Source of the DNA: Candidatus Omnitrophota bacterium
GTDB lineage: Bacteria > Omnitrophota > Gorgyraeia > Ghiorseimicrobiales > Ghiorseimicrobiaceae
DNA length: 64,000 nucleotides
Assembly (NCBI GenBank): GCA_030681595.1
Contig: JAUXSB010000037.1
Span: forward strand, 64,319-128,318
Direction: 5' to 3'
The notes beneath the pieces are model-generated. The model saw only the letters and a list, made by a program, of their open reading frames with translations, did no database searches and was not told the DNA's origin. Numbering within the stretch: the first letter of the stretch is position 1; each line of letters opens with the position of its first letter. Below, one piece after another: positions 12,877-56,953 of the stretch. The position numbers and the translations under genes were made by a program.

Positions 12877-12958
12877 ATTTTTTTACAAAAACAAATCTTC
12901 TTTTCTGACAAGGAGTTAAAGTGTAGCATATTTTCAACACCTTGTCAAGTAAAGACTT

Positions 12959-15661: not shown

Positions 15662-15684
15662 ATTTTATCTGTAGCGTTTATATT

Positions 15685-22651: not shown

Positions 22652-22742
22652 TCTAAATAATTTAATATGTATATTAGACTAAAAGCAGGAGTTATTCGCT
22701 CCTGCTTTTATTGTATCACCTTTTATATGTTCCGTTAATCTT

Positions 22743-23645: not shown

Positions 23646-23827
23646 CTTTTCCTCACTTTTTTGGGGCTGGCTTAAATTAATTAGAGTTAAGTTTTTTCCT
23701 TAGAAAATATATTTTAAAGATTCAGAGTTTTTTATTTAATAAAAGAAAAATAATAAAAAATAAGGCCGAATTATACTTCTTATTTATTTTAAAAGGTTTT
23801 TAAAAATATTGCTAAATAAATTTAAAT

Positions 23828-23860
23828 AAGGCGCCTTAACTTTGTGAGCTAAGGCGCCTT
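23828..23860. terminator. Hairpin formed by two copies of the self-complementary decamer AAGGCGCCTT (13-nt spacer), with a third degenerate copy at 23890. Probable terminator of the upstream PEP-CTERM gene and/or operator.
   Basis: Read directly. T/A-rich flanks on both sides. Confidence 0.45.
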
Positions 23861-23922
23861 TTCGTCGACTAAGAGCTCTTAACCTAAAAAAGGCGCTTAA
23901 CTTTACACCTTACGGTATAAAT

Positions 23923-24771
23923 TTAAGCAATCTTTTTTCTTTTTTTCGTTACTGCTAAACCAGCCATGCCAATACCGAATAAAAGCATTGATGTTGGTTC
24001 AGGAATCACATTAGCTTCACCACCTGCATCGCCTCTGACTACCCAATTACCTACTGGAGTATTTGAATTGTCCCTGACAGTAAAGGTAAAAGATAGATCA
24101 GAACCATATAGCTGTGTATTGGTATCATAGACTGAATCCCACGCACCAAGGCCTGTTGTGGCTAAGTACATAGCACCATTACCCGAACTCGTTAAAAAAT
24201 CAAAACCAGAGGTTAAGGTATGGCCTGAGCCAGAGAGATCAACTGGCGCTAAATCAAGCACCAATAAGCCATCTGTAACTCCGCTATAAGCAGACACGCC
24301 GGTTCTACCACCTGTTCCTAAGGTACCGTTGAAATCGGGAGTTACATCTAGATAAGCAGAGATGTGGCCCAACTTTGAAAGAATCGTTGTGTCACCCACG
24401 AAATCCGGCGATGATAAAGCGTCGTCATCAAAACCGTAAAACATAAAGGTTAACTCTTGAGTGCCGCTCCTTTGAAATATAGGATTGCCTGTCAGAATCT
24501 CCTCTATGCGTGACACGGTTCCAATGCCCCACGTATCTTCCGCCCCGTCAACATTTCCAAAAGTGTTTTCGGGGATAGTGTATCCACCCGCTGGGTTTGT
24601 GCCGAAAGGTGCCGGATTAACGTTGGTAGGTGTATATACGCCTGCGCTATACGAATACAATCTCCCCCAATCATATAATTTGTCAACATCGAGCGTGACC
24701 GGTATAGCGTAAGCATTGCTTAAGCCGAGAACTAATAACAACGTTGCAACTAATAATAATAATTTCTTCAT
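23923..24771 (-). CDS. PEP-CTERM sorting-domain protein.
   Basis: Signal peptide 'MKKLLLLVATLLLVLGLSNAYA' (internal start; the track ORF extends to 24855). C-terminus 'VIPEPTSMLLFGIGMAGLAVTKKRKKIA'. Confidence 0.85.
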   Translation of the reverse strand: MKKLLLLVATLLLVLGLSNAYAIPVTLDVDKLYDWGRLYSYSAGVYTPTNVNPAPFGTNPAGGYTIPENTFGNVDGAEDTWGIGTVSRIEEILTGNPIFQRSGTQELTFMFYGFDDDALSSPDFVGDTTILSKLGHISAYLDVTPDFNGTLGTGGRTGVSAYSGVTDGLLVLDLAPVDLSGSGHTLTSGFDFLTSSGNGAMYLATTGLGAWDSVYDTNTQLYGSDLSFTFTVRDNSNTPVGNWVVRGDAGGEANVIPEPTSMLLFGIGMAGLAVTKKRKKIA

Positions 24772-24904
24772 TAATTTTTTCACCCCCCTTCTTTTATACG
24801 TTATATATTTTATCCTTAAGTCCGTGGCTCTTGCCCCGTTAGAAAACTTTAACAAAGTTAAAGGTGTTTTTCTAATGGGGTTTTACTTATGGATATCAAT
24901 ATTC

Positions 24905-26410: not shown

Positions 26411-27028
26411 TTATGGTATGATTTTAACTATTGTGGGCATGATTTCGCGGATAAAGCCAGCTAATCTCTCTTCTGTTTCTTTTTCATCTTTAGTTATTGT
26501 TGTGGAAATTCTAATCATCGCCCCACCTGAAGATTTACCTTGCAGCTGATTAAGCATAATACGAAGTTGCTGGTTTAGATAATTAGGCGTGAATGTCTTA
26601 CCGCTTTTAAACCAATAAAACATTAGTTCGCGAGCCCCCCCTTTTTCTGCTATGAGATAGTTTGTTTTTAGCGGCGAACCAGTAAGGGTAATTTCTTCTG
26701 TTGTCTTTTTAATGATTGATACTCCGCTTCCGGTAAGGCAGACTTCCGGCGGATGTGATGCCTTGCGGTTCTTATCGGAATATATGATATATAAAACTAT
26801 CGCCGGCTCCCCGCTTTTTTTGTATTCCCTGAGTAATAAATTTCTTGTTTCTAATATTTCATAGACTTTTTCTTCCAAGACTATATCTTCCCCCTGCCAA
26901 TCTGCGATCTGTTTCGGGAAATTAGCTACGTTAAAGGCATCCTCCGGTTTTATCTGCTGGTAATATAAAAATAAGCTTAATGCCGCTGTCAGTGAAAATA
27001 TTATTATGATTAGAATATGACGCTTCAT
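26411..27028 (-). CDS. epsI: EpsI-family exosortase-associated protein.
   Basis: Single N-terminal TM. 'PKQIADWQGEDIVLEEKVYEILETRNLLLREY' and 'FYWFKSGKTFTPNYLNQ' are typical of EpsI (TIGR02914-like). Sits directly downstream of the exosortase. Confidence 0.7.
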   Translation of the reverse strand: MKRHILIIIIFSLTAALSLFLYYQQIKPEDAFNVANFPKQIADWQGEDIVLEEKVYEILETRNLLLREYKKSGEPAIVLYIIYSDKNRKASHPPEVCLTGSGVSIIKKTTEEITLTGSPLKTNYLIAEKGGARELMFYWFKSGKTFTPNYLNQQLRIMLNQLQGKSSGGAMIRISTTITKDEKETEERLAGFIREIMPTIVKIIP

Positions 27029-27042
27029 TTTATGGTCTCCTT

Positions 27043-27852
27043 TTACTCTAGTATCCTGCTCACTATCACCATCCCTATAAACGCCACTACAAATACCATC
27101 ATGCCTGCCGCGTCATGGATGAAGCCTTTAGCATATTGGGGGCCGTAAACCTCGCTCACAAAACATAAGAATACGATACGCGTGATATTGGAGGCAAGTG
27201 CCAGCGGTACCGAGGCAATGAGCATTATTCCCTTTTTTATTTTAGAGCCTTTTAGGTAATAGGCAAACAGGCTTCCCAGCGCTAAAAGCGCGATTAGCGA
27301 GCGCAGGCCTGAGCAGGGGTCTTCTACCATGAGGTTGGCATGGCGCATATGGATTAGGCTGCCTGTTCTTACCGCGGGAATCCCCATTTTATTCACTATG
27401 AATGTGGACATATGCGCGGCAAATATTTTCATTTTAAAACTGATGTTGGCGATAGCCACCAAAGGAAGCGGTACCATAAAAAGAAGAAACGATATGGGAA
27501 ACGCCAGTGGTTTTAACGTAGTTTTTCCGCCGAAATAGAGCGCAATACCGGCTAATGTGATAAGCATTGAGAGCCCTGAGCTAAAATAGACCCGCATCCA
27601 TGCGCTTAACAAGTGTATAACCAGTCCAACGCCGATTAATATCAATCCCAGATTAGACGGTTTATATTGCAATTTTAGTTTTTTTAGGCTTTGCCAGACG
27701 ATAAATCCCGATATCAGCGGCACAAGTATCCCGTGGCCATAATAAGAATCTTTCGCCTCCCATCTGTCCCACATCCAGATTAATGTCGGAAAATACGTGG
27801 CGATAAATAATACTGAAATTATTAATGGCTTAACTATTTTTTTATTGTCCAT
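27043..27852 (-). CDS. Exosortase (EpsH/Xrt family).
   Basis: Polytopic membrane protein with the catalytic-Cys motif 'DPCSGLRSL' and 'FIGMVIVSR'. Internal Met start at 'MDNKKIV'. Confidence 0.85.
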   Translation of the reverse strand: MDNKKIVKPLIISVLFIATYFPTLIWMWDRWEAKDSYYGHGILVPLISGFIVWQSLKKLKLQYKPSNLGLILIGVGLVIHLLSAWMRVYFSSGLSMLITLAGIALYFGGKTTLKPLAFPISFLLFMVPLPLVAIANISFKMKIFAAHMSTFIVNKMGIPAVRTGSLIHMRHANLMVEDPCSGLRSLIALLALGSLFAYYLKGSKIKKGIMLIASVPLALASNITRIVFLCFVSEVYGPQYAKGFIHDAAGMMVFVVAFIGMVIVSRILE

Positions 27853-27868
27853 AATAGAGTTCTCCTTC

Positions 27869-29053
27869 TTAATATTTTTGCAACAAATTTTCGATTTTAG
27901 ATATTGAATCTTCCCAGCGATAGTTATTTTCGATAAACCTCCTGGCATTTAGCGAAATCTCATTTCTTAATTGTCCGTCGTTAATTAAATCAATAATTCT
28001 TTCTGCGAATGCGCGAGGTTCATCGACAACTACAATCTCGCGGTCTTTTAAGGCGCCTATGCCGCTATAGCCGATGCTTGTGGTTACAACAGGTAGTCCC
28101 ATTGACATTGCTTCCAATATTTTATTTTGCGCGCCGGAACCGATCCTCAATGGGCATACAAACAACAGTGACTGATTTAAAAACGGCCTTGTATCTTTAA
28201 CATCACAGAATAATTCTACCGCATTATCTTCCCGGGCTATTTTTTTTAATTCTGCCGGGCAATTTGCTCCGATAATAGAAAATTTTATTTGCGGGACCCT
28301 TTCTTTTATCAACGGAAAGATTTCCCGATAAAAATAACGCACAGCGTCTAAATTATAGAATGCGCTTAAGTATCCTAAAAAAGCAACCCGCGGGATTTTA
28401 TGGTTATCTATAGGGCTTGGCTTGAAGTATTCGTAGTCAACGCCGTTGGGAACAATGTGTATATTTGATGGCCCAGATGTTCCTCCCAAAATTTCTTTTT
28501 TATCATTTTCTGAAATTAAAATAACCTCGTTAAACTTTTTTATGATTTTCCGCTCGTATCTTTTAATCCTGAAGTATTCCAGTAAATATACCGGCCATAA
28601 GATTCCTCTATTAAACTTTATCGTTCGTTTCATATGCAGCGATACCGCATCACATAAATCTAATATTCGGCTGACCCCTTGTATTTTTTCTGCAAACTGC
28701 GCCATACGGAATAAATGGATGTAGATACCATCAAACTTTTCGCTGGCGATTATCTTTTTTACTTTGTCCCGCATTTTTTTTGAATTATAGTAGGAAACCT
28801 GCAGCGGGCGGATTGAAAAAATATTCAGCAAGCAGTTTAAGTATGACTGCCAGCATGATAGCTTTACCACTTCTACCTTGTCACAATATTTTTTTAATTC
28901 TTCTACATAAGGAAGCTGTTTATCTGACTCTATAAACGACAGGAGAGTTACAGAATGCTTTTTACTAAGGCGCGATAAGAAATTAAACGACCTTAATTTA
29001 TCGCCTCTATTCATCGGATAAGGCAGCCGCGAGGTTAAAAATAATATTTTCAT
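27869..29053 (-). CDS. GT4 glycosyltransferase, PEP-CTERM/EpsH1-system-associated type.
   Basis: N-terminus 'MKILFLTSRLPYPMNRGDKLRSFNFL'. GT-B C-terminal 'EAMSMGLPVVTT'. Confidence 0.8.
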   Translation of the reverse strand: MKILFLTSRLPYPMNRGDKLRSFNFLSRLSKKHSVTLLSFIESDKQLPYVEELKKYCDKVEVVKLSCWQSYLNCLLNIFSIRPLQVSYYNSKKMRDKVKKIIASEKFDGIYIHLFRMAQFAEKIQGVSRILDLCDAVSLHMKRTIKFNRGILWPVYLLEYFRIKRYERKIIKKFNEVILISENDKKEILGGTSGPSNIHIVPNGVDYEYFKPSPIDNHKIPRVAFLGYLSAFYNLDAVRYFYREIFPLIKERVPQIKFSIIGANCPAELKKIAREDNAVELFCDVKDTRPFLNQSLLFVCPLRIGSGAQNKILEAMSMGLPVVTTSIGYSGIGALKDREIVVVDEPRAFAERIIDLINDGQLRNEISLNARRFIENNYRWEDSISKIENLLQKY

Positions 29054-32000
29054 TTTTTGTCTTCCGTCTCGGTTAAGATACTAAGCGCAAAGGGCGTCTT
29101 ATACAAAAACTCGTTTGGCCTTTGATAATATAGCTTTTCATAAATCATTCCGTCTTCTATTGGGTCAGCGCTTTTTCTTTGATGTTTAATTGTCTCGTTA
29201 AGCCTGCTTTTTGTTTCTTCAATGAAGCGCCTATCCCCTGTTAAATAATAAGAATAGGCAAGCGCATCAAAGAAAGCGGCATATTTTTCATTTTGAATTA
29301 GATAGTCAGTTCCTTTTACGATGCAATCAGCGATTGCCTTATTTTTTGTAAGTTTATGGTATTCTATCAATGCCGGAAGCGTATATCCTAACATATATGC
29401 GGCATGAGGCCTGCCTTCCCATTTCTTTAGGACTGGGTTATAGTTTTCGGTCCAGGCGCCGCTAGAGCTCTGCCCTTGATAGAAAAAATCCGCCCATTTA
29501 TCAGCTTTTTGTTTATATTTTTCCTTGCCTGTTAGTTCATATAAAAGCACGTCTCCCCATAAGACATTGGCAATGGAGCGTTGGGGAGCAATATCCGGAT
29601 GGCCTGTGTATGTAATAGGGTCTTTTAAGAAAAAGCTGCCGATCTCATTTACCACATCAAAGGCGCGCATATCGCCTGTCATGTAATAATAAAGCAAAAT
29701 GCCCAATGCGTTGGTATGCGCTGCTTCTTCGTTTCTGCCGCCCCAGTGGTCGCCGTTATGCCTATGCATCGAGCCGACTTGGCTGAATTCGTCCGAGATT
29801 TTACCTTTTAGCCTTTTATCTTCCGCAACGGTATTATAATGGCAGGTATCTATATCCATAATATGCCGGGCTAAATTTTCGCCAAAACTAAAGTATTTGG
29901 ATTTTCCTGTGCGTAAATATTGGATTAATGCGCCTGTGTGCGTACCGGCTGCCTCACAGTTAAACCATCCGTGCCTTCCTTCTGGATGCCATCCCCAATC
30001 GCCATATGATTTATCGTATGCCTCTTTTCTATACCAGCTTAATGTGTCTCCGAAATCTATCATTCCATACCAGCGGAATGCGTCTATTTGGCGTTGTGCC
30101 CAGTCGAATATTTTCTCAAGCATGTTTTCTACAGCGGCAAAGCGCTGCGGATCGTAAGGTTGTAATGCGCCGATGACCCTTGTGTCTGAAATCCAGCCGC
30201 TGGATGCCGTAAGCAACGGCGGCTTCCCAAAAAGTTCAGCAAGATCTTCAACTTGAGCTGTTTTATAAGCGCCATTATGAAAATAAAGTAGTAGCTCGTG
30301 TGTTTTAGCTAAGCCGAAAGCGCTGCCTCGCGCCGCAGCTTCCGGCCCTTCTGCTTTTTCTGTTGTGCGTAGGTTAAGCTCGCCCGCCTCTTGCGGCCAG
30401 AGATAGACGGCTAACAATCCTTTTTCGTCAACCTGAATTTTTTTTGGGTATTGTTGCCATAAATTTTTCACAATTACCGCTATGCCATTTTTGTCATTAG
30501 ATAAATCCAGCCAGCCGGACAGTTTTTCCCCTTGGCCGATAATCTTGTTTTCAGCATCTATCCGATAATGGTTGTAGTTATCCTGTAAAAGTTTTATTTG
30601 GCTTTCGGCCTTGCCGCTAAAAATTTTGTGGTTATCTGTGCCGAAAGTAAACATTTTGTTGTTTTCAGCTTCATACGGTATTTCGACGAAAATACTTTCA
30701 ATAGTTTCATTCTTCGGCAGGGATATTCCTTTATAAGCATAGTGGAATTTATTTTCGGGATAGCCCGTATAAATAAACGTGTGTTCAACTTTTACAATGC
30801 TTTGGTTAGCATATGCCTCTATCCTTACTACATATTTACAGAATTTTTGTTTTTTGTCATTCTCAAACCATCCTTCGGCTCTTATAATGCTGGATAATGG
30901 CCCTTTTTTTTCCACGCTAACCCGGCAGTCTTTATTATTTGAACTGCGGTAAATATCTCCCCTAAATTTAAGCGCAAGGTCCTGATTTTTGCTGATAAGC
31001 TCATCGTTGTCAAACTCGCCATTATTATCCGTATCCAGCCATACTGCGTCAAAAAGGCGGAAAGCTTTTTTATTAATGATGAATTTAAGCGGCCCTGTTA
31101 TTACGCAAATTTCATCATCGCTATCGTCAATTTTTAAATTATCCAGATTTTCGTTTGGAGAATTATTTTTAAAGAAATCAGCATAAGCCAAGAAATAATT
31201 CTGTATACCTTTTGCAGCGATGTCAGCCTTAAAGCTTAATAGCAGCCATTTAATGCTAGAGTCGTCCCACCGGCTTAAGACTTGAGCTTGATGGGGTATC
31301 TGGCGCCCTGTATTATCGATAAGCCTTAAATTCTCTATGGATTTTAGTTCTGACTTCGGAAAAGGAATGCCTCCTGATACAACCAAACCTTTAAAACTTG
31401 CGGAGGCCTCAATAGTTATATCTATCGGTATTTCTATGTAATTTTTTCCAGTATCCGAGTCAACCTTTAACCATTTATTTTTGAGATGCGCAAAATCAAA
31501 GTAGTCACCAGTTACATATGGGTGAGCATCCATAGCAAGATTGATAATTGATTCTAATTCTTTTTTGGCAAGAGGCTCCAAGCGCACATTATCAAGATAA
31601 AATATATTATTTTTTGCAGGTTCCCAGAGAAATATATTTAATTGGCCGATGTTTGATATGTCTAAACTGCGCCTTAATTCAGAGGTTTCAATCTCGATTT
31701 TTGAGCTCGACAGCGCATTTAGGGAAATATTTTTCTTAAAGCGTTTCCCGTTTTTGTCTTTGATTTGCAGGATTATTTTTGTTTTACGCTCTTGCGGGTT
31801 AAAAATATCCAAACTCAGGCTGTTGTAGGGCGTCCAGTTTGAAGCGAGGCGGTTATTTTGAAAATATTTTTCTACTTTTATTGCGGATGTTTTTCCCGGA
31901 AGGAAATCAATTTTTGCAGAGAAGCTATCGCTTGATGGATGCCGGTCTGATTGTATTAACGTTGCGTTTATTGTTTGCCATTTGTCAAAGTCGCCTTTAT

Positions 32001-32190
32001 CCTCAAAATCAGAAATAATAAGTTTCCCTTTGGCCTTTATCCGGTTATCGAACTTTCTTTCCTCTGTTCTCTCCCTTGCTTTTATTAAAGCATTTTTTAC
32101 CTTTTGCATAAAGGGTGTTTTAATGCAGGCAAAACCTACCGCTGCCATAAAGATCATTCCCGCCAAAAATATTAAGATATTTTTTTTCAT
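29050..32190 (-). CDS. Large (1046 aa) exported protein of unknown function; possibly a polysaccharide lyase/hydrolase (alpha/alpha-toroid, heparinase II/III-like?).
   Basis: N-terminal signal/anchor 'ILIFLAGMIFMAAVGFACI'. W/Y/H-rich C-terminal half ('WHPEGRHGWFNCEAAGTHTG'). No confident family assignment from sequence alone. Confidence 0.35.
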   Translation of the reverse strand: MKKNILIFLAGMIFMAAVGFACIKTPFMQKVKNALIKARERTEERKFDNRIKAKGKLIISDFEDKGDFDKWQTINATLIQSDRHPSSDSFSAKIDFLPGKTSAIKVEKYFQNNRLASNWTPYNSLSLDIFNPQERKTKIILQIKDKNGKRFKKNISLNALSSSKIEIETSELRRSLDISNIGQLNIFLWEPAKNNIFYLDNVRLEPLAKKELESIINLAMDAHPYVTGDYFDFAHLKNKWLKVDSDTGKNYIEIPIDITIEASASFKGLVVSGGIPFPKSELKSIENLRLIDNTGRQIPHQAQVLSRWDDSSIKWLLLSFKADIAAKGIQNYFLAYADFFKNNSPNENLDNLKIDDSDDEICVITGPLKFIINKKAFRLFDAVWLDTDNNGEFDNDELISKNQDLALKFRGDIYRSSNNKDCRVSVEKKGPLSSIIRAEGWFENDKKQKFCKYVVRIEAYANQSIVKVEHTFIYTGYPENKFHYAYKGISLPKNETIESIFVEIPYEAENNKMFTFGTDNHKIFSGKAESQIKLLQDNYNHYRIDAENKIIGQGEKLSGWLDLSNDKNGIAVIVKNLWQQYPKKIQVDEKGLLAVYLWPQEAGELNLRTTEKAEGPEAAARGSAFGLAKTHELLLYFHNGAYKTAQVEDLAELFGKPPLLTASSGWISDTRVIGALQPYDPQRFAAVENMLEKIFDWAQRQIDAFRWYGMIDFGDTLSWYRKEAYDKSYGDWGWHPEGRHGWFNCEAAGTHTGALIQYLRTGKSKYFSFGENLARHIMDIDTCHYNTVAEDKRLKGKISDEFSQVGSMHRHNGDHWGGRNEEAAHTNALGILLYYYMTGDMRAFDVVNEIGSFFLKDPITYTGHPDIAPQRSIANVLWGDVLLYELTGKEKYKQKADKWADFFYQGQSSSGAWTENYNPVLKKWEGRPHAAYMLGYTLPALIEYHKLTKNKAIADCIVKGTDYLIQNEKYAAFFDALAYSYYLTGDRRFIEETKSRLNETIKHQRKSADPIEDGMIYEKLYYQRPNEFLYKTPFALSILTETEDKK

Positions 32191-35246: not shown

Positions 35247-36407
35247 TTAGATGCATGGTAGATGCGACCATAATTTGTTATTTAACTTACAGCACTTGGC
35301 ACAGGCAGGCAGTAATTTATATCTTTTTAAACGCATTCTGAAATTGGAGTATTTTTTGCCATTCCAGATTGATTTAAGCGAATTTACCCTTATGTTACCC
35401 ATCGGAATATCAATTGAGCAGGGATAGATGTTTCCGAAGGGGTCAAGCCGTGTTTCAAACCAGGGATAGAAACACCTCTGGCAATAAGCAAAATTCGGGT
35501 CAAAAAACCTCTTTTCTATTTCATCTCCTTTTAACGGCGGCCTAAAGTTTAAGGAGACGTTGTATTTTTTGGCCTTCTCTTCTGTTTTTCTAATAGATTC
35601 TTTAAGTATATTAATATCTATCTGTTTGATCTCATCATTAATATTTTGATTTTCAGGTTTAAGAGTTCCCATTTTGAGTATTTCTGATGTTTGGCTGAGG
35701 TTGCTTTCTGAGGTATAGAATAAATAGAGGAAGTTTATCATATTTATTTTTAAATCGTGCGCTACATCCACAATTTCATCTAAATTGTCTTGGTTGAGTG
35801 CGGAAATCGTAAAATTAAAGTTTACTTTAGGATTAGCTCTGCCGTTTTTAAATCTCTGTATGGTTTCAACTGTATTGTAAATTTTTGAAAATGAATCTCC
35901 TCTTCCGCGTATTCGGTTGTGGGTGTCTTTTGTCCCATCCAATGAGAAGCTAATTATTTCGTTGCCAATATTAACAAGGTCTTTGGCGGTATCGTTGTTA
36001 ATTAAGGTGCCGTTACTTATGATGCTGCAATAGATGCCCTTGTTTTTGATGTAGTCTAAAATCTCGAGCATGTCCTGCCTTAAAAAAGGCTCTCCGCCGG
36101 TAATCATTATCGCTCTTGTTTTTAGCGACTTCAGTTCATCAATAAAAGTTTTTATTTCGGCTGTATCCAGCTCCTTATTTATATCTGCGTCCGGAGCCTT
36201 TGTTTCTGTTTTCTCTTTTTTCCAGTTTGCTAAAGGGCACATTTGGCAGTATAAATTACACCTGTATGTAATTTCAAATACTACCCTAAGCGGCGTAAAT
36301 GCGTAGCCGTTTAAAAAATTATACGGAATAAGGTAGTATGGTATAAGTAAAGCATCCGTGCTTATACCCAATTTATTTGCCAGTTTTTTAATCAGAGTAA
36401 CGTCCAT
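35247..36407 (-). CDS. Radical SAM / SPASM-domain protein.
   Basis: 'YRCNLYCQMCP' (CxxxCxxC) and a C-terminal Cys-rich SPASM-like region 'CQRCFYPW...CSIDIPMG...CAKCCK'. Confidence 0.75.
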   Translation of the reverse strand: MDVTLIKKLANKLGISTDALLIPYYLIPYNFLNGYAFTPLRVVFEITYRCNLYCQMCPLANWKKEKTETKAPDADINKELDTAEIKTFIDELKSLKTRAIMITGGEPFLRQDMLEILDYIKNKGIYCSIISNGTLINNDTAKDLVNIGNEIISFSLDGTKDTHNRIRGRGDSFSKIYNTVETIQRFKNGRANPKVNFNFTISALNQDNLDEIVDVAHDLKINMINFLYLFYTSESNLSQTSEILKMGTLKPENQNINDEIKQIDINILKESIRKTEEKAKKYNVSLNFRPPLKGDEIEKRFFDPNFAYCQRCFYPWFETRLDPFGNIYPCSIDIPMGNIRVNSLKSIWNGKKYSNFRMRLKRYKLLPACAKCCKLNNKLWSHLPCI

Positions 36408-37539
36408 CGTATTTTTCTTTTAATAAATTGATGTATTCGCTTTCCATCTGGTAAATCATCCTGGATAAATTAAATTTTTCCTTAATTGTTTTTTGTGCAT
36501 TCTGCTTGATTTTATCTGCTATCTCTGGTTGTCTCAGTAAGAATATTATTTTTTCCTTCATAGACTGAATATCGCCCGCAGGCGTCAACAAACCAGTCGT
36601 ATTATTTATAATTATTTCTTTATTCCCGTCTACATCGGTGGCAATAACTGGTATGCCAGCTGCCATTGATTCCAGTATAGTGTTAGACATTCCTTCGGAA
36701 TAAGAGGCATTGACCGATATATCCATTATTTTTAAAAGTTCCGGGACATCCGGCCTTTTGCCTAAAAATAGAATATTTTCTCCTAAGCTTAGGTTATTGG
36801 TCAAGGTTTTTAGATTGTTTTTTAACGGGCCGTCGCCGATAATTAAGAACCTAACGTTCGGTATTTCCTCCAATATTAGTTTCGCCGCCTCCAAGAAATA
36901 CTTATGCCCCTTAACCCAGCTTAAATTTGCAATTATACCGACAATTCTATCTTCTGGATTTATTCCTAATTCTTTCTTTTTCCGGGCAATATCTACGGCG
37001 ATATCATAACAAGACACATCAATACCGTTGTAAATTGTAACTATTTTATCTAAGCTTACGCCTTCAAGTTTGCGCACGGTGTCGCGTACGGAATTACTTA
37101 CCGTAAAGACCTTGTCGGCAAGCCGATGAGCGAATTTATAGGCTTGGCGGTGCCGCCATTTTCCTTCGCGGTGTATCCCTGTGTCGCGCCTGCCGGATAT
37201 AATAACCGGAGCGCCGGCAAGTTTTGCCGCGAGATTACCAGCGATGTTTGCGCTAAATAAATATGTATGCACAATATCAAATTTTTCTTTTTTGATGTAT
37301 TGAGCTAAAGCAAGGGTATCCCTTATTCCGCTATAGCCGTAAATTCTCTTAATCCCAAAAACTTTCGGTATTATGCCTATCTTGTTAAGCTCTTCTTCTA
37401 ATTCTCCTATACGCACCAGACAGCATAAATGCGGCTCAAAAACATCCCTGTTAATCAGGCGTAAAACTTCTAGCAAGTGTTTTTGTGTCCCTGCCCTGTC
37501 CATCTTGTCTATAATATAGAGAATTTTTATTTTACTCAT
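36388..37539 (-). CDS. GT4 glycosyltransferase.
   Basis: 'EGMSNTILESMAAGIPVIATDVDGNKE' is the EX7E-type GT-B motif. Confidence 0.85.
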   Translation of the reverse strand: MSKIKILYIIDKMDRAGTQKHLLEVLRLINRDVFEPHLCCLVRIGELEEELNKIGIIPKVFGIKRIYGYSGIRDTLALAQYIKKEKFDIVHTYLFSANIAGNLAAKLAGAPVIISGRRDTGIHREGKWRHRQAYKFAHRLADKVFTVSNSVRDTVRKLEGVSLDKIVTIYNGIDVSCYDIAVDIARKKKELGINPEDRIVGIIANLSWVKGHKYFLEAAKLILEEIPNVRFLIIGDGPLKNNLKTLTNNLSLGENILFLGKRPDVPELLKIMDISVNASYSEGMSNTILESMAAGIPVIATDVDGNKEIIINNTTGLLTPAGDIQSMKEKIIFLLRQPEIADKIKQNAQKTIKEKFNLSRMIYQMESEYINLLKEKYDGRYSD

Positions 37540-37541
37540 AA

Positions 37542-38972
37542 TTAATCTAACTGGCCTTTTATTTTTAAATACCGCGCCTTAACCATAGCGGCGGTCAAAA
37601 TCCAGAATATGCCGCTTAAGGACTGCGTTTCAAATCGGGAACCGAATAAATTACATACCAGAAACCCGATAAATCCCCCTAAAAAGCCCAAGGCGACAGC
37701 TTTTACTGTTTTATCATTTACCCGCTTATATACCCAGAGGGTATTTCTAAAAATTATAAGCAGGATAACTAAAAATACCGCAAGCGTAATCAGCCCCATT
37801 TCCGCGGCAATGATGATATAAGCGTTATGCGCGTCCATCCTCCCGACTTCCGCGTAGGATGATATCATATGAGGGAATACGCCGTAACCTACGCCAAAAA
37901 GCGGGTAGGCCTTAATCATTTCCCAGGCGCCTTTCCAGATTTTTATTCTGGAACTTGCGCTGGTTTCCAGTGTAGTTTCTAGCGCGGGCTGATAAAGCTC
38001 TGTTGGCTCTATGAATGTTTCTTGGAACCTTTGCTTTACTGTTTCCGGCATTATCCCGGGGATAAATAAAGCGGCTAAAAAGGCAAAAATTAGCAGAACA
38101 AAAATCAGTTTATTTTTTATGAAAGCAACAAATAGCGAGCCGGCTATAAATGCCAACATTGCCCCGCGGGAATATGTATCGGTCAAGGCGCGAACAGCCA
38201 GTAAGAGAGGCGCGGAAAGAAGCCAGTATCGCAGCCGCTTAAGATTAAATAAGATAAACCCCATAAATAAAAATGAATAATACACAAAAAATGACCCGGC
38301 AATATTCGGCTGTTCAAAAATGCTTCCCGCGCGCATCTTGTCTATATCCGAAGAAAACCCTAAATTTATGGACTCCCTGATTGTAATCAGTCCGACTATG
38401 GTGATTACGCACATCGTTACTATCGCGATGTCTTTAATGTCGTTCTTATTTTTGATTAGCGGCAGAACAATAAAGAAAGTAAGTATCGGCGTAAGCCATT
38501 CTTTAAACGAGCTGATGAATCTTTCAAAATAAAAAGCCCCGAAATACAACGTTCCTTTAATAAAAGACGCCGCAATTAAGATAATAAATATAAAAAGCCA
38601 GAGAGAAAGGCTGGATCTCGGAAATAACTTTATATTGTATTTTGCTTTTTGGGAGAAGGCCCCCATAAGCATAGCCAGGATAAATACATTGGTCGCATTG
38701 ATTGCCCAGGTTTGTATGCCGAAACCCCCGGGGAAAACATAGCTAAAAGGCAGGTATGCTATAAAAAGTAAAAGTAGTTGAGTAGGGTTTAAGAACGCCA
38801 GGATAATAATGGTTATTGAGCTAAGTATCGCTATTGCCACTAAGGTAAAAGGCGAGACGGTTATCTTTTCAGTTGCCAAGAGAGTAAAAAATATGAGCGC
38901 AACGGCTAATATAGCGACAAAAAAGGGAGTTATGTTATTCTTTAATATTATATTATTAGTTGCGGTTTTCAT
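37542..38972 (-). CDS. Wzy-type polymerase / O-antigen-ligase-family membrane protein.
   Basis: About 12 TM helices and a periplasmic loop 'DTYSRGAMLAFIAGSLFV', typical of the O-antigen ligase/Wzy_C fold. Confidence 0.7.
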   Translation of the reverse strand: MKTATNNIILKNNITPFFVAILAVALIFFTLLATEKITVSPFTLVAIAILSSITIIILAFLNPTQLLLLFIAYLPFSYVFPGGFGIQTWAINATNVFILAMLMGAFSQKAKYNIKLFPRSSLSLWLFIFIILIAASFIKGTLYFGAFYFERFISSFKEWLTPILTFFIVLPLIKNKNDIKDIAIVTMCVITIVGLITIRESINLGFSSDIDKMRAGSIFEQPNIAGSFFVYYSFLFMGFILFNLKRLRYWLLSAPLLLAVRALTDTYSRGAMLAFIAGSLFVAFIKNKLIFVLLIFAFLAALFIPGIMPETVKQRFQETFIEPTELYQPALETTLETSASSRIKIWKGAWEMIKAYPLFGVGYGVFPHMISSYAEVGRMDAHNAYIIIAAEMGLITLAVFLVILLIIFRNTLWVYKRVNDKTVKAVALGFLGGFIGFLVCNLFGSRFETQSLSGIFWILTAAMVKARYLKIKGQLD

Positions 38973-38978
38973 AATGTA

Positions 38979-40139
38979 TTAACTATATAGCTTTTTCTCA
39001 ATATAATTACGCAGCCCTGCGGGAATAATATGTTTTAGTAATAGGATAAGCCCGTATTTTAATTTAAGAAGAGAAATATATAGATTGCCTCGGTAACTGC
39101 CCGACGATATTATAACTCTTATTTTCTTGCGCAGGCCATTTGCCCAGCGCATTTTATACCATTCTTCTCCTCTGAGCAGGTCGCATTCGGTTATCCCGTT
39201 TTCATGCGCTTCCTTTACGATATAACCAATTAAGTTCTGGCTTACATTAAGTTTTGCGTAGTTATTATCAGCGCCATTTTGATAAAAATAGAGCTTATCT
39301 TTATACCTAAAGCAGTATTGCGCGGCTACCATTACGTTATTAAGAGAAAGAAAACATAGGTAGAGCCACTTTTTCTCCGAAAGCGACTTCATTGTATTTT
39401 CCTGAAAATTTTTATAGCTTTCTGATATATATTTATTCTTTTCATTTTTTTGATTCCTTCTGTCAGCATAGAGGCGCTGGAAATGTTCAAAGGCTCCGTT
39501 AGCATTGCGGATATCATCGAATTTGGCAACTTCCACTTTAAAGCTTTGTTCTAATTTACGCACTGATGAGCGCAGGTTACGGCGCATGAATTTGGGTAGG
39601 CCTTGCACATACGCTTCCCAATTTGACGACGGCTTTATGGTTGGACAAAAGGGCCGTTCTTCTTTTATCAAGTAGCTAAACCCGTTTTTATTTATATAAC
39701 CCAAGATATGATTTTTAGATTGGGAATCTTCCAACATATCGGAAAGGAAAAGTATATGTGCCGTTGCCAACCCATTCGAAGATAGCTTTAATAAAGCGAT
39801 TAGCACGTCTTCTTCATTCCCCTTATAACAAATAAAATCCAAATATTCAGAAGTTGTTTCATTCCCGGTTCCGATAAATTTCAATTCATTATAAGGAATT
39901 AGATTAATAATTTTTTTTCGGGCAATATACAAAGGGGCAATGCCCATAAGTTCCCCGGTTTCATTACGTGCCAAAATGATATGTAATTTTTTTCCTCCGG
40001 AAAACGCCTTCCACCAGTTAAACTGCCATTCCCAAGTCAGGAATATGTTATCGGCGCTGCTGTTATCTAAGAGATTATCCCATTCTTCCCTTAAGTGGCT
40101 GAATTTTTCTAAACAATCTATTATTTCAAGTTTAAACAT
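38979..40139 (-). CDS. FemAB/BioF2-like (Acetyltransf_6, CelD-like) GNAT protein, PEP-CTERM-locus type.
   Basis: 'LREEWDNLLDNSSADNIFLTWEWQFNWWKAF' and the C-terminal GNAT fold. Confidence 0.65.
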   Translation of the reverse strand: MFKLEIIDCLEKFSHLREEWDNLLDNSSADNIFLTWEWQFNWWKAFSGGKKLHIILARNETGELMGIAPLYIARKKIINLIPYNELKFIGTGNETTSEYLDFICYKGNEEDVLIALLKLSSNGLATAHILFLSDMLEDSQSKNHILGYINKNGFSYLIKEERPFCPTIKPSSNWEAYVQGLPKFMRRNLRSSVRKLEQSFKVEVAKFDDIRNANGAFEHFQRLYADRRNQKNEKNKYISESYKNFQENTMKSLSEKKWLYLCFLSLNNVMVAAQYCFRYKDKLYFYQNGADNNYAKLNVSQNLIGYIVKEAHENGITECDLLRGEEWYKMRWANGLRKKIRVIISSGSYRGNLYISLLKLKYGLILLLKHIIPAGLRNYIEKKLYS

Positions 40140-41067
40140 TTTTTAATACTTCCTTTATAATTTTAAGGACGACTAAATGCGGTGGTCTTTCTCCCAATGA
40201 TATTCTTTTTAAGGCGAAGTTATTATCGTCTTTTTTTATCTTTCCTTCTATTGTCGTAACCGCGCAGGTAAAGCCATTTTCTCTTAAAATTTCTATGACT
40301 GCTTCATTAAAATCGCCTGCTTGTCCATTGGGGTAACAAAAAGCAGTAATTTTCCTGCTTAACTCTGTTTCTATTTTCTGTTTTGAATCAATTATCTCCT
40401 TTTCCGCCTCTTCCTTATTTACTTTTGTCAGGATAAGATGATTTACCGTATGCGCGCCAAATTCTATATTCGGCTCTTTGGCCATAATCTTTACTTCATC
40501 CCAAGAAAGCATTTTTTCTGCTTCAGGTATTGATTTGTAATCTATACCAGGACAGGATTCCCATTGCTTAATCCTATTTTCCTTGTCTGAATTAGGCACA
40601 TTTTTAAGCTCTGTTTTTAATTTTTCTAAAGATGCCGCGTCTGTTCTTTTAAGCATACTTAATTTATCCGTCCAGATAATATCATCGTTGTCAATTACCC
40701 CGGTAGTTAAAAAAACAGTTGCCGGAAGGTTATTCTTTTTAAGTATGGGAAAGGCGTTGGTAAAGGTATTTTTATATCCGTCGTCAAAGGTTATAACTGT
40801 CAGCGGTTTATCCGAGTTATTAATTAAGCCAACGAATTCAGATAATGTAACAAATTTAAAATACCGTTTAAGCGCCTTAATTTGTTTCTCAAGAATCCCG
40901 ATATCTAACCCGGAAAATATATTGTGATTGCCGTCATTTACCCTATGATACATAAATATAAAATGCGCCGGCTTAATTTTAAGCATTATCTTTAATGCGG
41001 CCCTTGACGCTCCGCTATAATAAAGGATGGTACTCAAAAATAATTTTAGCAGATGTAAAATATACAT
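40132..41067 (-). CDS. Polysaccharide deacetylase (CE4/NodB), PEP-CTERM-locus subfamily.
   Basis: 'ITFDDGYKNTFTNAFPILKKNNLPATVFLTTG'. Confidence 0.85.
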   Translation of the reverse strand: MYILHLLKLFLSTILYYSGASRAALKIMLKIKPAHFIFMYHRVNDGNHNIFSGLDIGILEKQIKALKRYFKFVTLSEFVGLINNSDKPLTVITFDDGYKNTFTNAFPILKKNNLPATVFLTTGVIDNDDIIWTDKLSMLKRTDAASLEKLKTELKNVPNSDKENRIKQWESCPGIDYKSIPEAEKMLSWDEVKIMAKEPNIEFGAHTVNHLILTKVNKEEAEKEIIDSKQKIETELSRKITAFCYPNGQAGDFNEAVIEILRENGFTCAVTTIEGKIKKDDNNFALKRISLGERPPHLVVLKIIKEVLKNV

Positions 41068-41068
41068 A

Positions 41069-42520
41069 TTATCGCTGCAATACAGCTTCTTTAAATTCTT
41101 TAAGAATTAGTTTATCTAACATAATCAAAGATAGCACGTAAGCGGAACCCGAGATAAATATAGTCATAATTAATGAGAATATATTAAATGCGCCGTTATG
41201 TGTTAATGCCGCCCCAAGCGTTATAATTATTAAAGACATAAGCAATGCGCTTAAAACCGCCGGTTTAAAAGAATCTAATAACTTTGGGAATGTATAATCC
41301 AATACTCTTCTGATGCGCCATAGGCTCACTATATAGGTAATTATGGCGGAAAGCATCACGGCATAGCCCGCGCCTAAGATTCTAAAATAACGCACGCCGG
41401 GAATAAGCAGGATAAGAAATAATGCCGCTTGCAGGGCATTTAAATAGAAATCTAATTTTGATTTTCCGCCGGCTAAAATTGCCGGGCCTACGGCTGAGTT
41501 CAGCGCTTTAAAGATTGCCGCTATGGCAAGAATTTTTAAGATGTCTATCGCCGCAAGCCACTTATCGCCATACATAACTTTTAAAAATACAGGCCCCAGT
41601 AAAAATAGGCCTACCCCGAAAGGGACAGCGATAATCGCGATATATTTTGAAACTCGCAGGAAAACTTCTCCGAAGTATTCTTTGTCATGCTGCATCTTGG
41701 AAAATGCCGGAAACAATACTCGCGAGAATTTACTGATTAAATAATCACTGCTAAAATTTGCTAAACTAAAAGCCATCGCGTAGAAACCAAGTTGAGCAAC
41801 CCCGAGTAATTTACCTACTATAAGGTTATCTAAGTTGCTGCGGATAAATCCGATTAGTGAGCCGGCAATAATATATTTTCCGTAATGGAGCATTTCCATG
41901 GCTATTTTTTTATCAAATTCAAATTTAGGCCGCCACTTTGCAAAATACCAGTAACTGCCGATTTGGATAAACACCTGAAGCACATAGCCGACAACTAAAC
42001 TCCATATGCCAAAGCCGAAAAATGCCAAAATAACTGCGCAGAGAGAATAGGTTAATCCGCCGATAATTTCAGCAATAGACTTTTCTCTAAACCGCATATT
42101 CCTGTTGAGAATAGCGTCAGGAACCCTACCGAAGCATCCGATAATAAAAATCAGGCCTAAGATTCTTACTACGGCTGTAAGAGAATTATTGCCGAGGAAC
42201 TTCGCTCCCCACGGAGCAATAATATATAAAATGAGAAAAAGAAATGTGCCGAAAATAGGGATAAGGATGAAAGCGGTATTAGCGGCCCTATCAAAGCCGG
42301 CATCTTCTTTTCTGCGGATTAGCGCGTAATCAACGCCTAAGCTTTTAAAAAGGCCTAATGCGTCTATCAAGACAAACGCTAAGGCAAATAATCCAAAATC
42401 CGCCGGCTGCAGGATTCTGGCTAAAATAATTGTAGTGCCAAAAGAGACCGCCTTTTGGGCAATATTTAACGCAAAAATCCATTTAATTCCTGAAAATGCC
42501 TGCTTTTTTAGAATTCCCAT
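41069..42520 (-). CDS. wzx: Wzx-type polysaccharide flippase (MOP superfamily).
   Basis: 14-TM profile. N-terminus 'IFALNIAQKAVSFGTTIILARIL' is typical of Polysacc_synt. Confidence 0.8.
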   Translation of the reverse strand: MGILKKQAFSGIKWIFALNIAQKAVSFGTTIILARILQPADFGLFALAFVLIDALGLFKSLGVDYALIRRKEDAGFDRAANTAFILIPIFGTFLFLILYIIAPWGAKFLGNNSLTAVVRILGLIFIIGCFGRVPDAILNRNMRFREKSIAEIIGGLTYSLCAVILAFFGFGIWSLVVGYVLQVFIQIGSYWYFAKWRPKFEFDKKIAMEMLHYGKYIIAGSLIGFIRSNLDNLIVGKLLGVAQLGFYAMAFSLANFSSDYLISKFSRVLFPAFSKMQHDKEYFGEVFLRVSKYIAIIAVPFGVGLFLLGPVFLKVMYGDKWLAAIDILKILAIAAIFKALNSAVGPAILAGGKSKLDFYLNALQAALFLILLIPGVRYFRILGAGYAVMLSAIITYIVSLWRIRRVLDYTFPKLLDSFKPAVLSALLMSLIIITLGAALTHNGAFNIFSLIMTIFISGSAYVLSLIMLDKLILKEFKEAVLQR

Positions 42521-42532
42521 TATTAGAACCGG

Positions 42533-43867
42533 TTATTTAACATTGCTGCGAAAATATCCTAATTTTCCGCTTGGGTCTTTAGGTATAGGAGAAATAAAAC
42601 TGTATTCAACGTTTGTATCATTGCCGATATATTCACTAAGCACGTTATCAAAATGATTTTTTAAATGCGGCTTGGCATTATCGCTTGCATCTATTAAAAT
42701 CTTAAAATCGGTTAATGTATTTTGTATTACCTTGAATGCCTTTACTTCATCATAATATGGCATTTTATGCGGTATGGAAAAAATATCAGGGTGAAAATTT
42801 ATATTATTTTCAATTTTAACCATATCAGCGTCTCTGCCTATTTTTATATCCATAATTGCCAAGTTTCTTCCGCAGGGGCAGGTAGTATTTTTAAAGCTTC
42901 CCCTGTCTCCTAACTTATAGCGTATTAGCGGCATCTCATAGTTAGTTAAGTCGGTAATTACGATATCGGCTATTTCTCCTTCGCCTGCAGGCAAACCGTT
43001 ATTTAAAAATTCTACTATTAAGTTTTCTTGCGCGATATGCATATTACCGTAGGTACATTCAAAAGCGATGAGGTGAAATTCTTTGCAGCCGTATTCATTT
43101 TTTACTTTTACTCCAAATACTTGTTCGATGAGATTTTTTTGGTGTTCCCATAGGACCTCCGAGGTACAGATGATTACTTTTGGCTGATGTTTAACCATGA
43201 GTTTGCCCTGCTTTATTAAATAAGCAAATTCATATATTGAGTGGGCATAGCCATAGATTAAATCAGGTTTAATGCGATGGTAGAGGCCTAAATATTTCTT
43301 TATTGTTTCTTTAGTTATCTCTTGAGCAACAAAAAAAGTTTTATTATCTACTAATCTATCCTCTATCGCATCAAGATAAGTTCTATCTTTATCTTCTCCG
43401 CATAATTGCAGGATTCTATCTCCGATATCGATTCCATTCCAGCGTCTCCCCCGCCATTTTGCCGCCATCTGCCACGCTAGAGCGTTTTCATCTTTATAAA
43501 CTGTTATCGGCATGCCGCTTGAGCCACTGCTTCTATAATAATTTTTTTTGCTAGCTTTTTTAGAGATTAACTTATTTAAATTGGCTCTTGCTATTTCTTT
43601 TGGCAAAATAGGTATGCGTTCTAAATCAGGCCAATCCTTGATACTTTCTATGTTAATAGAATCATTATCTAATAGATTATGGTAATATTCGGTATTTTCA
43701 TAAGCGTAAGTGATAAGTTTTTTAAATTTATTCCATTGCAGATTTTTTAATTCTTCCTGGCTTTGCCACTGGCTTTTCTCAAGTTCTCGCAGTGCTCTTA
43801 ATAAAGGGATCTTTCTCTGGCTGTAGTAAAGCGGAAAAGTAATATATTTGACAATATAATTAAACAT
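42533..43867 (-). CDS. CapK / coenzyme-F390-synthetase / phenylacetate-CoA-ligase-family adenylating enzyme.
   Basis: 'RSSGSSGMPITVY' P-loop. Internal Met start chosen to avoid overlap with the next gene. Confidence 0.7.
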   Translation of the reverse strand: MFNYIVKYITFPLYYSQRKIPLLRALRELEKSQWQSQEELKNLQWNKFKKLITYAYENTEYYHNLLDNDSINIESIKDWPDLERIPILPKEIARANLNKLISKKASKKNYYRSSGSSGMPITVYKDENALAWQMAAKWRGRRWNGIDIGDRILQLCGEDKDRTYLDAIEDRLVDNKTFFVAQEITKETIKKYLGLYHRIKPDLIYGYAHSIYEFAYLIKQGKLMVKHQPKVIICTSEVLWEHQKNLIEQVFGVKVKNEYGCKEFHLIAFECTYGNMHIAQENLIVEFLNNGLPAGEGEIADIVITDLTNYEMPLIRYKLGDRGSFKNTTCPCGRNLAIMDIKIGRDADMVKIENNINFHPDIFSIPHKMPYYDEVKAFKVIQNTLTDFKILIDASDNAKPHLKNHFDNVLSEYIGNDTNVEYSFISPIPKDPSGKLGYFRSNVK

Positions 43868-43872
43868 CGTTT

Positions 43873-44583
43873 TTATAAGGAAGACGTTTTTAAAAAGTAA
43901 CGCTTGCCAGCGCCGATTAATCTTAATAAGAGATAGGCGACATTGTAGATTAGGCATAGCATAAGTGCCAACATCAGTTTATTTGTCAGCCCGCCAAGAA
44001 TAATGATGAATCCATTTATATCGGTGCCTATAGTAAATTCGCGTAAAATTGTCTTTAATATGCCGATTTTATTCTGCGCAGTTCCCATATTTATTTTAGT
44101 ATCAGTATAATTCTTTTTAGATTTTATCGCCAATATCGCTTCTTTTGTCATAAGCGAAACAATAATGTGCTGCAACATAATTACAAAAAAACCCAATGTC
44201 CATACTGTCTCTGGGTTATAATTGCGAGCTAATCCCCAGCAGACCCCGAAATAAATCACCATTTCTAAAATTCTTCCTGATACGCTGTCCAGCCATTCCC
44301 CGCGCTCGGAAACCCTGTTGGTTATTCTTGCCAAGTCTCCATCGACAAAATCTAAAAACCACGCCAGCATATATAATATTGAGCCAAACACCGCTGTCGG
44401 GTATGCTCCGAAAGAATATGAAAATGCCGAGATCATTCCGATTAATAATCCGGCTAACACAATTTGCTCGGGCATAATTTTAGAATTTTTTAGCTTATAT
44501 GCTATAAACCCTGAACCAATACGGATAAATCTATTGATATTGTAATTTGTCTCTTTGAATATATATTTATCAAATCTACCCAT
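43873..44583 (-). CDS. CDP-alcohol phosphatidyltransferase-family membrane protein.
   Basis: 'DFVDGDLARITNRVSERGEWLDSVSG' matches DG-x2-AR-x8-G-x3-D. Confidence 0.7.
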   Translation of the reverse strand: MGRFDKYIFKETNYNINRFIRIGSGFIAYKLKNSKIMPEQIVLAGLLIGMISAFSYSFGAYPTAVFGSILYMLAWFLDFVDGDLARITNRVSERGEWLDSVSGRILEMVIYFGVCWGLARNYNPETVWTLGFFVIMLQHIIVSLMTKEAILAIKSKKNYTDTKINMGTAQNKIGILKTILREFTIGTDINGFIIILGGLTNKLMLALMLCLIYNVAYLLLRLIGAGKRYFLKTSSL

Positions 44584-55441: not shown

Positions 55442-55442
55442 A

Positions 55443-56952: not shown

Positions 56953-56953
56953 T

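Follow-up and report, generated by a model that had tools for sequence, protein, structure and literature searches.

Antibiotics such as the aminoglycosides, avilamycin and blasticidin offer well-documented cases of sugars that are tailored by radical S-adenosylmethionine (SAM) enzymes. BtrN (PDB entry: 4M7T), the 2-deoxy-scyllo-inosamine dehydrogenase of the butirosin pathway, is the founding twitch radical SAM enzyme; its auxiliary cluster has four cysteine ligands, and it catalyses the two-electron oxidation of a carbohydrate-like alcohol (PMC9012708, from which the definition of the twitch domain is also taken). Radical SAM carbohydrate epimerisation is described for the neomycin, hygromycin and avilamycin pathways in the text and reference list of PMC10991966, and a title cited there presents HygY as a twitch enzyme that is turned into a dehydrogenase by one cysteine mutation. 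The subject of the present analysis is a gene for a 386-residue radical SAM protein on the minus strand of a 64,000-nucleotide (nt) stretch of DNA from a Candidatus Omnitrophota bacterium (contig JAUXSB010000037.1), referred to as the window, where it lies at positions 35247 to 36407 amid genes for exopolysaccharide assembly. With moderate confidence, this enzyme is proposed to tailor a carbohydrate of the glycan made by the locus, within a Wzx/Wzy-dependent, exosortase-linked exopolysaccharide pathway.

Other described systems bear on this proposal in different ways. The carbohydrate epimerases HygY, NeoN and AviX12 of the antibiotic pathways act on sugar units of assembled oligosaccharides. 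The anaerobic sulfatase maturase anSME (PDB entries: 4K36-4K39) combines the radical SAM core with a full SPASM domain, which holds two auxiliary clusters, and acts on C/S-x-P/A-x-R targets. In BlsE, the cytosylglucuronate decarboxylase, and in DesII, the radical SAM fold accommodates sugar-nucleotide substrates. The XrtA/EpsH-type PEP-CTERM loci have in common with the surroundings of the gene an exosortase, EpsI, stp1- and stp2-like glycosyltransferases of family 4 (GT4), a FemAB-like protein, polysaccharide deacetylases, Wzx, Wzy, a priming sugar transferase and PEP-CTERM proteins, together with a trio of GAF-domain kinase, sigma-54 regulator and TPR protein. To our knowledge, no radical SAM gene has been described among the core genes of such loci; the gene in the window is an accessory one, and its relatives also occur in glycan loci that have no exosortase in the visible flank.

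The gene is correct as described in the earlier note on this DNA, far beyond chance. The open reading frame (ORF) has exactly the coordinates given there and begins with ATG, and this start codon is backed by homologues of equal length with an aligned N terminus. Two Pfam models are passed, Radical_SAM (PF04055: E 2.6e-21, score 76.9 bits, cutoff 29.5) and, over residues 312-372, SPASM (PF13186: E 1.8e-14, score 54.2 bits, cutoff 21.5), and a 100% identical database protein is annotated as 'radical SAM protein [Candidatus Omnitrophota bacterium]'. In an alignment with 31 relatives (26-83% identity), eight cysteines are invariant, of which three form the radical SAM motif C50-x3-C54-x2-C57, kept in all 31 members, and five (C312, C330, C369, C372 and C373) are in the C-terminal domain.

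The label of SPASM domain, as used in the earlier note, holds as far as the PF13186 cutoff is concerned, and has to be narrowed when considering the cysteines, since the seven-cysteine motif (CX9-15GX4C - gap - CX2CX5CX3C - gap - C) is incomplete. What is present is Cx12Gx4C followed by CxxCC, and the CX2CX5CX3C...C half is absent from the protein and from the alignment. The protein ends 13 residues past CxxCC, and the aligned relatives have 0-40 residues beyond it. The same picture is obtained for the wider family, where the signature Cx9-16Gx4C...CxxCC occurs in 148 of 178 sequences with a tail of only 2-40 residues (longer in a few fusion proteins), and where a single sequence of the 178 has the full SPASM motif. 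With the motif cut short in this way, the C-terminal domain is predicted to be a truncated SPASM domain, of the BtrN twitch type, with space for one auxiliary cluster and not for two.

The comparison with BtrN is in agreement with this assignment. When a profile of the C-terminal 90 residues of the family is compared with the PDB sequences, BtrN is the sole clear match (E 7.7e-10), with SkfB as the runner-up (E 0.02). The profile alignment pairs C312, C330, C369 and C372 with the auxiliary-cluster cysteines of BtrN (in SC, PC and CKNC), which we take to be C169, C188, C232 and C235. A single set of four cysteines is therefore found at the BtrN ligand positions, and on its sequence the protein qualifies as a member of the twitch radical SAM class. 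The two enzymes thus have in common the CX3CX2C core, the truncated SPASM domain and the four aligned cysteines, and the genes of both are found among carbohydrate-assembling genes. The differences are also considerable: the similarity of the catalytic cores is only remote, BtrN has about 250 residues as compared with 386 here, where 40 residues extend the N terminus and a further insert separates the barrel from the twitch domain, and BtrN belongs to an aminoglycoside cluster and not to a Wzx/Wzy exopolysaccharide locus. Right after the CxxC pair the family has the invariant C373 (codon 35289-35291, minus strand), which aligns with Asn236 of BtrN. The protein is not an orthologue of BtrN. The likeness with HygY, NeoN and AviX12 is a lead from their described function.

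No curated family model claims the protein. No NCBIfam model reaches its cutoff, the highest scores being those for NirJ1 (120.5 bits against 650) and for the twitch domain-containing radical SAM protein N_Twi_rSAM (NF033640; 116.1 against 170); the latter score is split over two stretches and leaves about 118 extra N-terminal model positions unmatched. The model of the GDL-motif maturases gives 73.5 bits against a cutoff of 592, and the anSME model is outside the 25 best of 79. The protein does not group firmly with any housekeeping radical SAM family of this library, as no NCBIfam model is near its cutoff. By sequence, the protein is placed outside the anSME, BtrN, RiPP (ribosomally synthesised and post-translationally modified peptide) maturase, AhbD/NirJ and N_Twi_rSAM families as currently modelled. 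It is an uncharacterised enzyme, new at the family level within the known twitch radical SAM kind.

The AlphaFold2 (AF2) model (predicted local distance difference test score 91.5, predicted template modelling score 0.89) has two N-terminal helices, a six-stranded partial TIM barrel, a helical bridge, a β-hairpin and a final helix. When this model is compared with the PDB by Foldseek, SkfB, SuiB, PqqE, BlsE, MoaA, viperins, DesII and anSME are retrieved, all at 13-20% identity, and the best template modelling (TM) score among the solved structures is that of BlsE (TMq 0.63, TMt 0.73), which is also matched at the profile level (E 2e-18). The sequence identity with BlsE and DesII is 13-16%, there is no common family model and the pathway context is another one. 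Judged from the predicted model, these are remote superfamily relationships only, and the sugar- or nucleotide-directed enzymes BlsE, MoaA, viperin and DesII appear alongside the peptide maturases.

The presence of the latter enzymes among the matches raises the question of whether the protein could be a RiPP-type maturase, with a small precursor peptide as its substrate or else the PEP-CTERM proteins that the exosortase sorts. Most characterised SPASM and twitch enzymes act on peptides, SkfB, SuiB, PqqE and CteB are the top matches of the catalytic core, and two PEP-CTERM proteins are encoded at 22743-24855. The protein nevertheless has no peptide-recognition domain of the RRE or PqqD-like type, neither in Pfam at E<=0.1 nor in the AF2 model, where the N terminus consists of two short helices. 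There is also no space for an adjoining precursor ORF, given the 20-nt overlap upstream and the 15-nt gap downstream of the gene, and when the gaps of the locus were searched for precursors, no small ORFs rich in Cys or Gly were found; the search yielded a DUF2061 membrane protein and otherwise trivial ORFs. Most homologue loci have no exosortase within 10 kb, and the fusions with glycosyltransferases of family 2 (GT2), described below, indicate glycan chemistry. A peptide or protein maturase is therefore considered improbable.

The genomic context bears on a role in glycan assembly. The gene lies between glycosyltransferases, as had been noticed earlier: a GT4 gene overlaps its start, and a GT4-deacetylase-GT4 fusion begins just past its stop (Table 1). 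It is found within the assembly part of the locus, with the glycosyltransferase, Wzy and Wzx genes, and not within the part for nucleotide-sugar precursors. Twelve homologue loci with precomputed Pfam annotation (28-72% identity, flanks of 10 kb on each side) were compared with the window, and in ten of these, GT4, GT2, Wzx or Wzy genes mark a glycan or glycolipid locus. In the closest one (L007, 72% identity), synteny with the window extends from the FemAB-like gene as far as the priming transferase, and the GT4 gene again overlaps the radical SAM gene, which points to a conserved translational coupling between the two genes. In L001 and L006 the order is Wzy-GT4-methyltransferase-GT4-GT4...PGA_cap-radical SAM; L009 has GT4, FemAB-like, deacetylase, radical SAM, GT4 and CapK-like genes; L005 has GT4, AsnB, GT4, Wzy and Wzx genes with an exosortase close by; and in L004, L010 and L011 glycosyltransferases and B12-radical SAM genes are accompanied by Wzx or Wzy. 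In L142 (1-9062), three B12-radical SAM genes alternate with four glycosyltransferase genes and are followed by the family member, and L143 contains an ArnT-like / GT2 / LAB_N / sulfatase-type transferase / PAP2 / LptFG cluster.

A family-specific metagenome scan, made with the twitch-domain alignment of six closer sequences, added 50 loci, of which 16 remained after dereplication and a length threshold of at least 8 kb. GT4 homologues are present in at least 12 of these 16 loci, FemAB-like genes in three (in addition to the window) and a sulfatase in one. The species genomes of GTDB were also scanned, with the generic pattern GGEPF[LI]RxD, and among the matches listed there were generic radical SAM genes of <=30% identity, which are of no use for the context. 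In the high-GC loci L107, L113 and L121, the ORF calling yielded spurious antisense ORFs.

Some of these neighbours would also fit with a modification of a non-sugar part of the glycoconjugate, namely an aminoacyl or acyl substituent provided by FemAB-like, CapK-like or GNAT enzymes (by epimerisation or cross-linking of an amide-linked amino acid, for example) or the polyprenyl or lipid carrier. FemAB-like and deacetylase genes adjoin family members in the window, L007, L009 and L128, CapK-like adenylating enzymes are encoded in the window, L006 and L009, PGA_cap is accompanied by a peptidase M55 in L001 and L006, and AsnB-like amidotransferases are present in L005, L107 and L140; for the carrier, L143 is a cluster for the modification of lipid A and lipopolysaccharide, and the lipid-modifying GDGT-MAS is among the remote matches. 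No such partner is common to all loci, however, as L142, L004, L010 and L011 have only glycosyltransferase genes and other radical SAM genes, and the auxiliary domain is nearest to that of a carbohydrate-directed enzyme. The modification of a non-sugar substituent or of the lipid carrier is the main rival of sugar tailoring, and it is regarded as unlikely, with a chance that is small though not negligible.

The family is a large one. The word-index search alone had pointed to a small family, and this was overturned by an exhaustive profile search, which finds at least 150 representatives of 50%-identity clusters at E<1e-79 and 7887 at E<1e-30, the latter set surely taking in neighbouring families. 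About twenty of the best 150 representatives are multidomain proteins. In four of them (P0222, P0219, P0231 and P0202) a GT2 domain is fused with family radical SAM modules; P0222 (651 residues) consists of a GT2 domain, resembling the polysaccharide GT2 enzymes TuaG, WcaE and EpsD, and one family module ending in CxxCC. In other multidomain members, two to four radical SAM/SPASM modules are arranged in tandem, and one such protein has a B12-binding domain. These tandem proteins include giants of 900-1900 residues (P0128, P0136, P0140, P0143, P0151 and P0194), which, together with the L142 operon, look like multi-step radical tailoring lines for glycans. An apparent fusion of 808 residues in L121 has been excluded from the counts, as the reading frame is probably unterminated.

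The unusual sugar modification that had been put forward in the earlier note fits with the ten of twelve Wzx/Wzy/glycosyltransferase loci, with the GT2 fusions and with an auxiliary domain that is nearest to that of BtrN. For the substrate and the chemistry, we infer the following steps. The [4Fe-4S] cluster of the CX3CX2C motif would cleave SAM reductively to the 5'-deoxyadenosyl radical, a step which is established for the superfamily and is read here from motif and fold. This radical would then take a hydrogen from a sugar carbon, as suggested by the conserved context and the GT2 fusions, the substrate being either a nucleotide-sugar donor or a repeat unit linked to undecaprenyl diphosphate, on which the flanking GT4 enzymes act; the position of the gene, flanked by GT4 genes, and the GT2 fusions suggest the lipid-linked unit. 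The sugar radical may lose an electron to the BtrN-like auxiliary cluster, generating a keto sugar, by analogy with BtrN, or it may regain a hydrogen on the opposite face, generating an epimer, by analogy with HygY and NeoN, for which branch the antibiotic epimerases serve as the model. The modified residue would subsequently be incorporated into the exported polymer. Dehydrogenase or epimerase chemistry of this specific kind is a tentative suggestion, and rather doubtful as a prediction of the actual reaction. C-methylation, which had also been named as an option, is unlikely, because the 386-residue protein has no B12 or other methyltransferase domain in Pfam.

Several points weigh against sugar tailoring. 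The carbohydrate link comes from guilt by association and from the similarity of the auxiliary domain. Over the catalytic core, BtrN is no nearer than the peptide maturases, the top match being SkfB (E 3e-29), and twitch domains are also found in enzymes of quite different chemistry, such as MoaA and SkfB. There is no neighbour gene that is common to all loci, so the partner or substrate is not readable from the context, and L008 and L144 have no glycan genes in the visible flank, their contexts being uninformative. Finally, the fifth invariant cysteine, C373, is not accounted for by the proposal.

When the family is considered as a whole, it is a large, unnamed group with a recognisable signature, consistently tied to glycosyltransferases and in some members fused with them. 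It is conceivable, as a speculation that is more doubtful than the assignment of the individual enzyme, that the Cx12Gx4C...CxxCC family is an unrecognised polysaccharide-tailoring class, which acts on lipid-linked repeat units in Wzx/Wzy assembly, often in cascades with B12-dependent or other radical SAM enzymes, and yields sugars beyond the NAD- and PLP-dependent pathways. The idea of a cascade is suggested by the tandem fusions of two to four modules, by the GT2 fusions and by the L142 operon, in which glycosyltransferase and radical SAM genes are interleaved. If this is true, epimers and keto, deoxy or C-branched residues would become accessible beyond the ordinary nucleotide-sugar pathways that depend on NAD or PLP, and radical chemistry would be a regular part of the diversification of cell-surface glycans in anaerobes.

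In the full-text literature on radical SAM enzymes in connection with polysaccharides, O-antigen, capsule, exosortase or SPASM, no characterised homologue of the enzyme was found, and neither the searched literature nor the curated family libraries contain a characterised radical SAM sugar tailoring step in Wzx/Wzy exopolysaccharide or O-antigen assembly. The radical SAM genes mentioned in Geobacter papers are unrelated. The nearest parallel is an uncharacterised 'anSME-like' gene beside cysDN, cysC, a sulfotransferase and a glycosyltransferase near the HS:19 capsule locus of Campylobacter jejuni (PMC8743553). As it stands, the result is a refinement of the annotation and a reasonable target for biochemistry, not a demonstrated mechanism. 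If an activity were established, the family could be used to flag unusual sugars in Omnitrophota and other uncultured anaerobes and would provide a new enzyme type for glycoengineering, and many database labels such as 'heme synthase', 'anSME-like' and 'MoaA/NifB/PqqE family' could be corrected.

The earlier note had also raised the possibility that the enzyme matures one of three proteins of the alkaline phosphatase superfamily, and these are indeed present in the same array of genes on the same strand, as PF01663 (Phosphodiest) paralogues 11.5-18 kb upstream. An anSME-like maturase would convert a Ser or Cys of these paralogues, or of another hydrolase of the locus, into formylglycine or another modified nucleophile. 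The shared strand and array speak for this, as does the fact that anSME, which has the radical SAM core and the Cx9-15Gx4C hairpin in common with the protein, is a neighbour in both the structure and the profile comparison (TM score of about 0.57; core E 5e-19). Two sulfatase genes are also found about 6 kb from the family member in L004, and the C. jejuni cluster mentioned above joins cysDN with its 'anSME-like' gene. The target motif [CS]x[PA]xR is, however, absent from all three paralogues, and from four other large proteins of the locus. At the equivalent position the paralogues have SSPAW, SGPAW and SSVAW, followed by TSFxTG, and this S-x-P/V-x-W...TG pattern is presumably the unmodified Ser/Thr nucleophile site of NPP-type enzymes. 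In L004 (17515-21182), the two sulfatase genes are followed by a separate radical SAM/SPASM gene of 370 residues, which is probably a genuine anSME. Moreover, only half of the SPASM motif is present in the protein studied here, which lacks CX2CX5CX3C...C, the half that holds the second auxiliary cluster in anSME, and nine genes separate its gene from the paralogues. No homologue of the paralogues is found in the 16 dereplicated loci, where the flanks reach only 10 kb on each side as compared with the distance of 11.5-18 kb in the window, and this negative is therefore weaker evidence than the motif test. Because the target motif is missing, the L004 sulfatases have their own SPASM gene and the second auxiliary cluster is missing, an anSME-like role is very unlikely, to the point that the maturase idea is to be dropped; of the two ideas, sugar modification is the better supported one.

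Table 1. Features of the radical SAM gene and of the surrounding exopolysaccharide locus (positions in the window).
Feature	Position	Strand	Remarks
Radical SAM / twitch enzyme gene, 386 residues	35247..36407	-	ATG-start ORF, Pfam, identical database protein, AF2 model
CX3CX2C codons (C50, C54, C57), motif of the [4Fe-4S] SAM-cleaving cluster	36237..36260	-	Invariant in 31/31 members
Twitch (truncated SPASM) core, C312-x12-G325-x4-C330 ... C369-x2-C372-C373	35289..35474	-	Five invariant Cys
GT4 glycosyltransferase (stp2-like)	36388..37539	-	Stop overlaps radical SAM start by 20 nt; same overlap in L007
GT4 - polysaccharide deacetylase - GT4 fusion, 1014 residues	32187..35231	-	Begins 15 nt past radical SAM stop; 1003-residue counterpart in L007
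Wzy-type polymerase (Wzy_C)	37542..38972	-	
FemAB-like protein (Acetyltransf_6)	38979..40139	-	Beside family members also in L007, L009, L128
Polysaccharide deacetylase	40132..41067	-	Beside family members also in L009, L128
Wzx-type flippase	41069..42520	-	
CapK/PaaK-like adenylate-forming enzyme	42533..43957	-	Also in L006, L009
Exosortase EpsH	27043-27948	-	TIGR02602 160.7 bits, cutoff 105.55
EpsI (DUF3485)	26411-27028	-	
Three Phosphodiest (PF01663) paralogues	47971-49686, 50936-52621, 52921-54198	-	GT4 and DUF2061 ORFs interspersed

From about 63341 down to 25207, all genes are on the minus strand with minimal gaps. In the direction of transcription, the array starts with ManC, an SDR epimerase/dehydratase, a pyruvyl-transferase-like protein, an IspD-like cytidylyltransferase, two proteins of the CDP-alcohol phosphatidyltransferase family, CysD and CysN, and continues with the three Phosphodiest paralogues (with the GT4 and DUF2061 ORFs), a GT2 enzyme, a 577-residue GNAT protein, a methyltransferase and the CapK/PaaK-like enzyme. 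Then come Wzx, the polysaccharide deacetylase, the FemAB-like protein, Wzy, the GT4 enzyme and the radical SAM gene, which is followed by the GT4-deacetylase-GT4 fusion, a 1046-residue PcRGLX-like protein, an stp1-like GT4 enzyme, the exosortase, EpsI and the priming sugar transferase, with the two PEP-CTERM proteins further on. As judged from this gene content, the surroundings are a predicted exosortase/PEP-CTERM exopolysaccharide locus. The XrtA-specific exosortase model is below its cutoff (164.9 against 208), and the stp1 model is just below (307 against 316.65). A promoter and terminator scan of the 30-45 kb region gave the background level of shuffled sequence and is silent on the operon structure.

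Further genes of this locus can be noted in their own right. Accessory genes typical of PEP-CTERM systems are found at 8457-12019 (minus strand), encoding a sigma-54 response regulator, a GAF histidine kinase and a TPR protein (PrsR/K/T-like), and at 12959-16416 and 21968-24855 (minus strand), encoding a 900-residue AMP-binding/PP-binding/acyltransferase protein, two FeeM-like N-acyl amino acid synthases of the GNAT type and the two PEP-CTERM proteins. The PcRGLX-like protein (29050-32190, minus strand) resembles polysaccharide lyases or hydrolases, has three domains and is conserved in L007 (13023-16133); it may be involved in trimming or processing of the polymer. The GT4-deacetylase-GT4 fusion is an unusual protein, and in L007 its counterpart (10011-13022) is accompanied by a 720-residue GT4-deacetylase fusion.

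The IspD-like cytidylyltransferase and the two CDP-alcohol phosphatidyltransferase-family proteins (56236-57661 and 43873-44583, minus strand) are suggestive of a system that supplies a CDP-activated polyol- or alcohol-phosphate substituent, in the manner of a teichoic-acid-like decoration. Directly upstream of the three Phosphodiest paralogues, at 54206-56243 (minus strand), CysD and CysN are encoded, the latter with 411 residues and no fused adenosine 5'-phosphosulfate (APS) kinase, and the P-loop motif of APS kinase is not found anywhere in the window. CysD and CysN together with the paralogues suggest that the polymer is sulfated or decorated in another APS-dependent way, and the Phosphodiest proteins could be the transferases. 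The gap of about 300 nt between two of these paralogues is occupied by the ORF of the DUF2061 membrane protein (52611-52919, minus strand; 102 residues, E 7e-17), which is shorter than the minimum of 120 residues in the ORF list. Outside the exopolysaccharide locus and unrelated to it, the window contains two more radical SAM genes, at 849-1847 (plus strand) and 4901-5860 (minus strand), which have the CX3CX2C motif and the PF04055 match and no SPASM or twitch domain.

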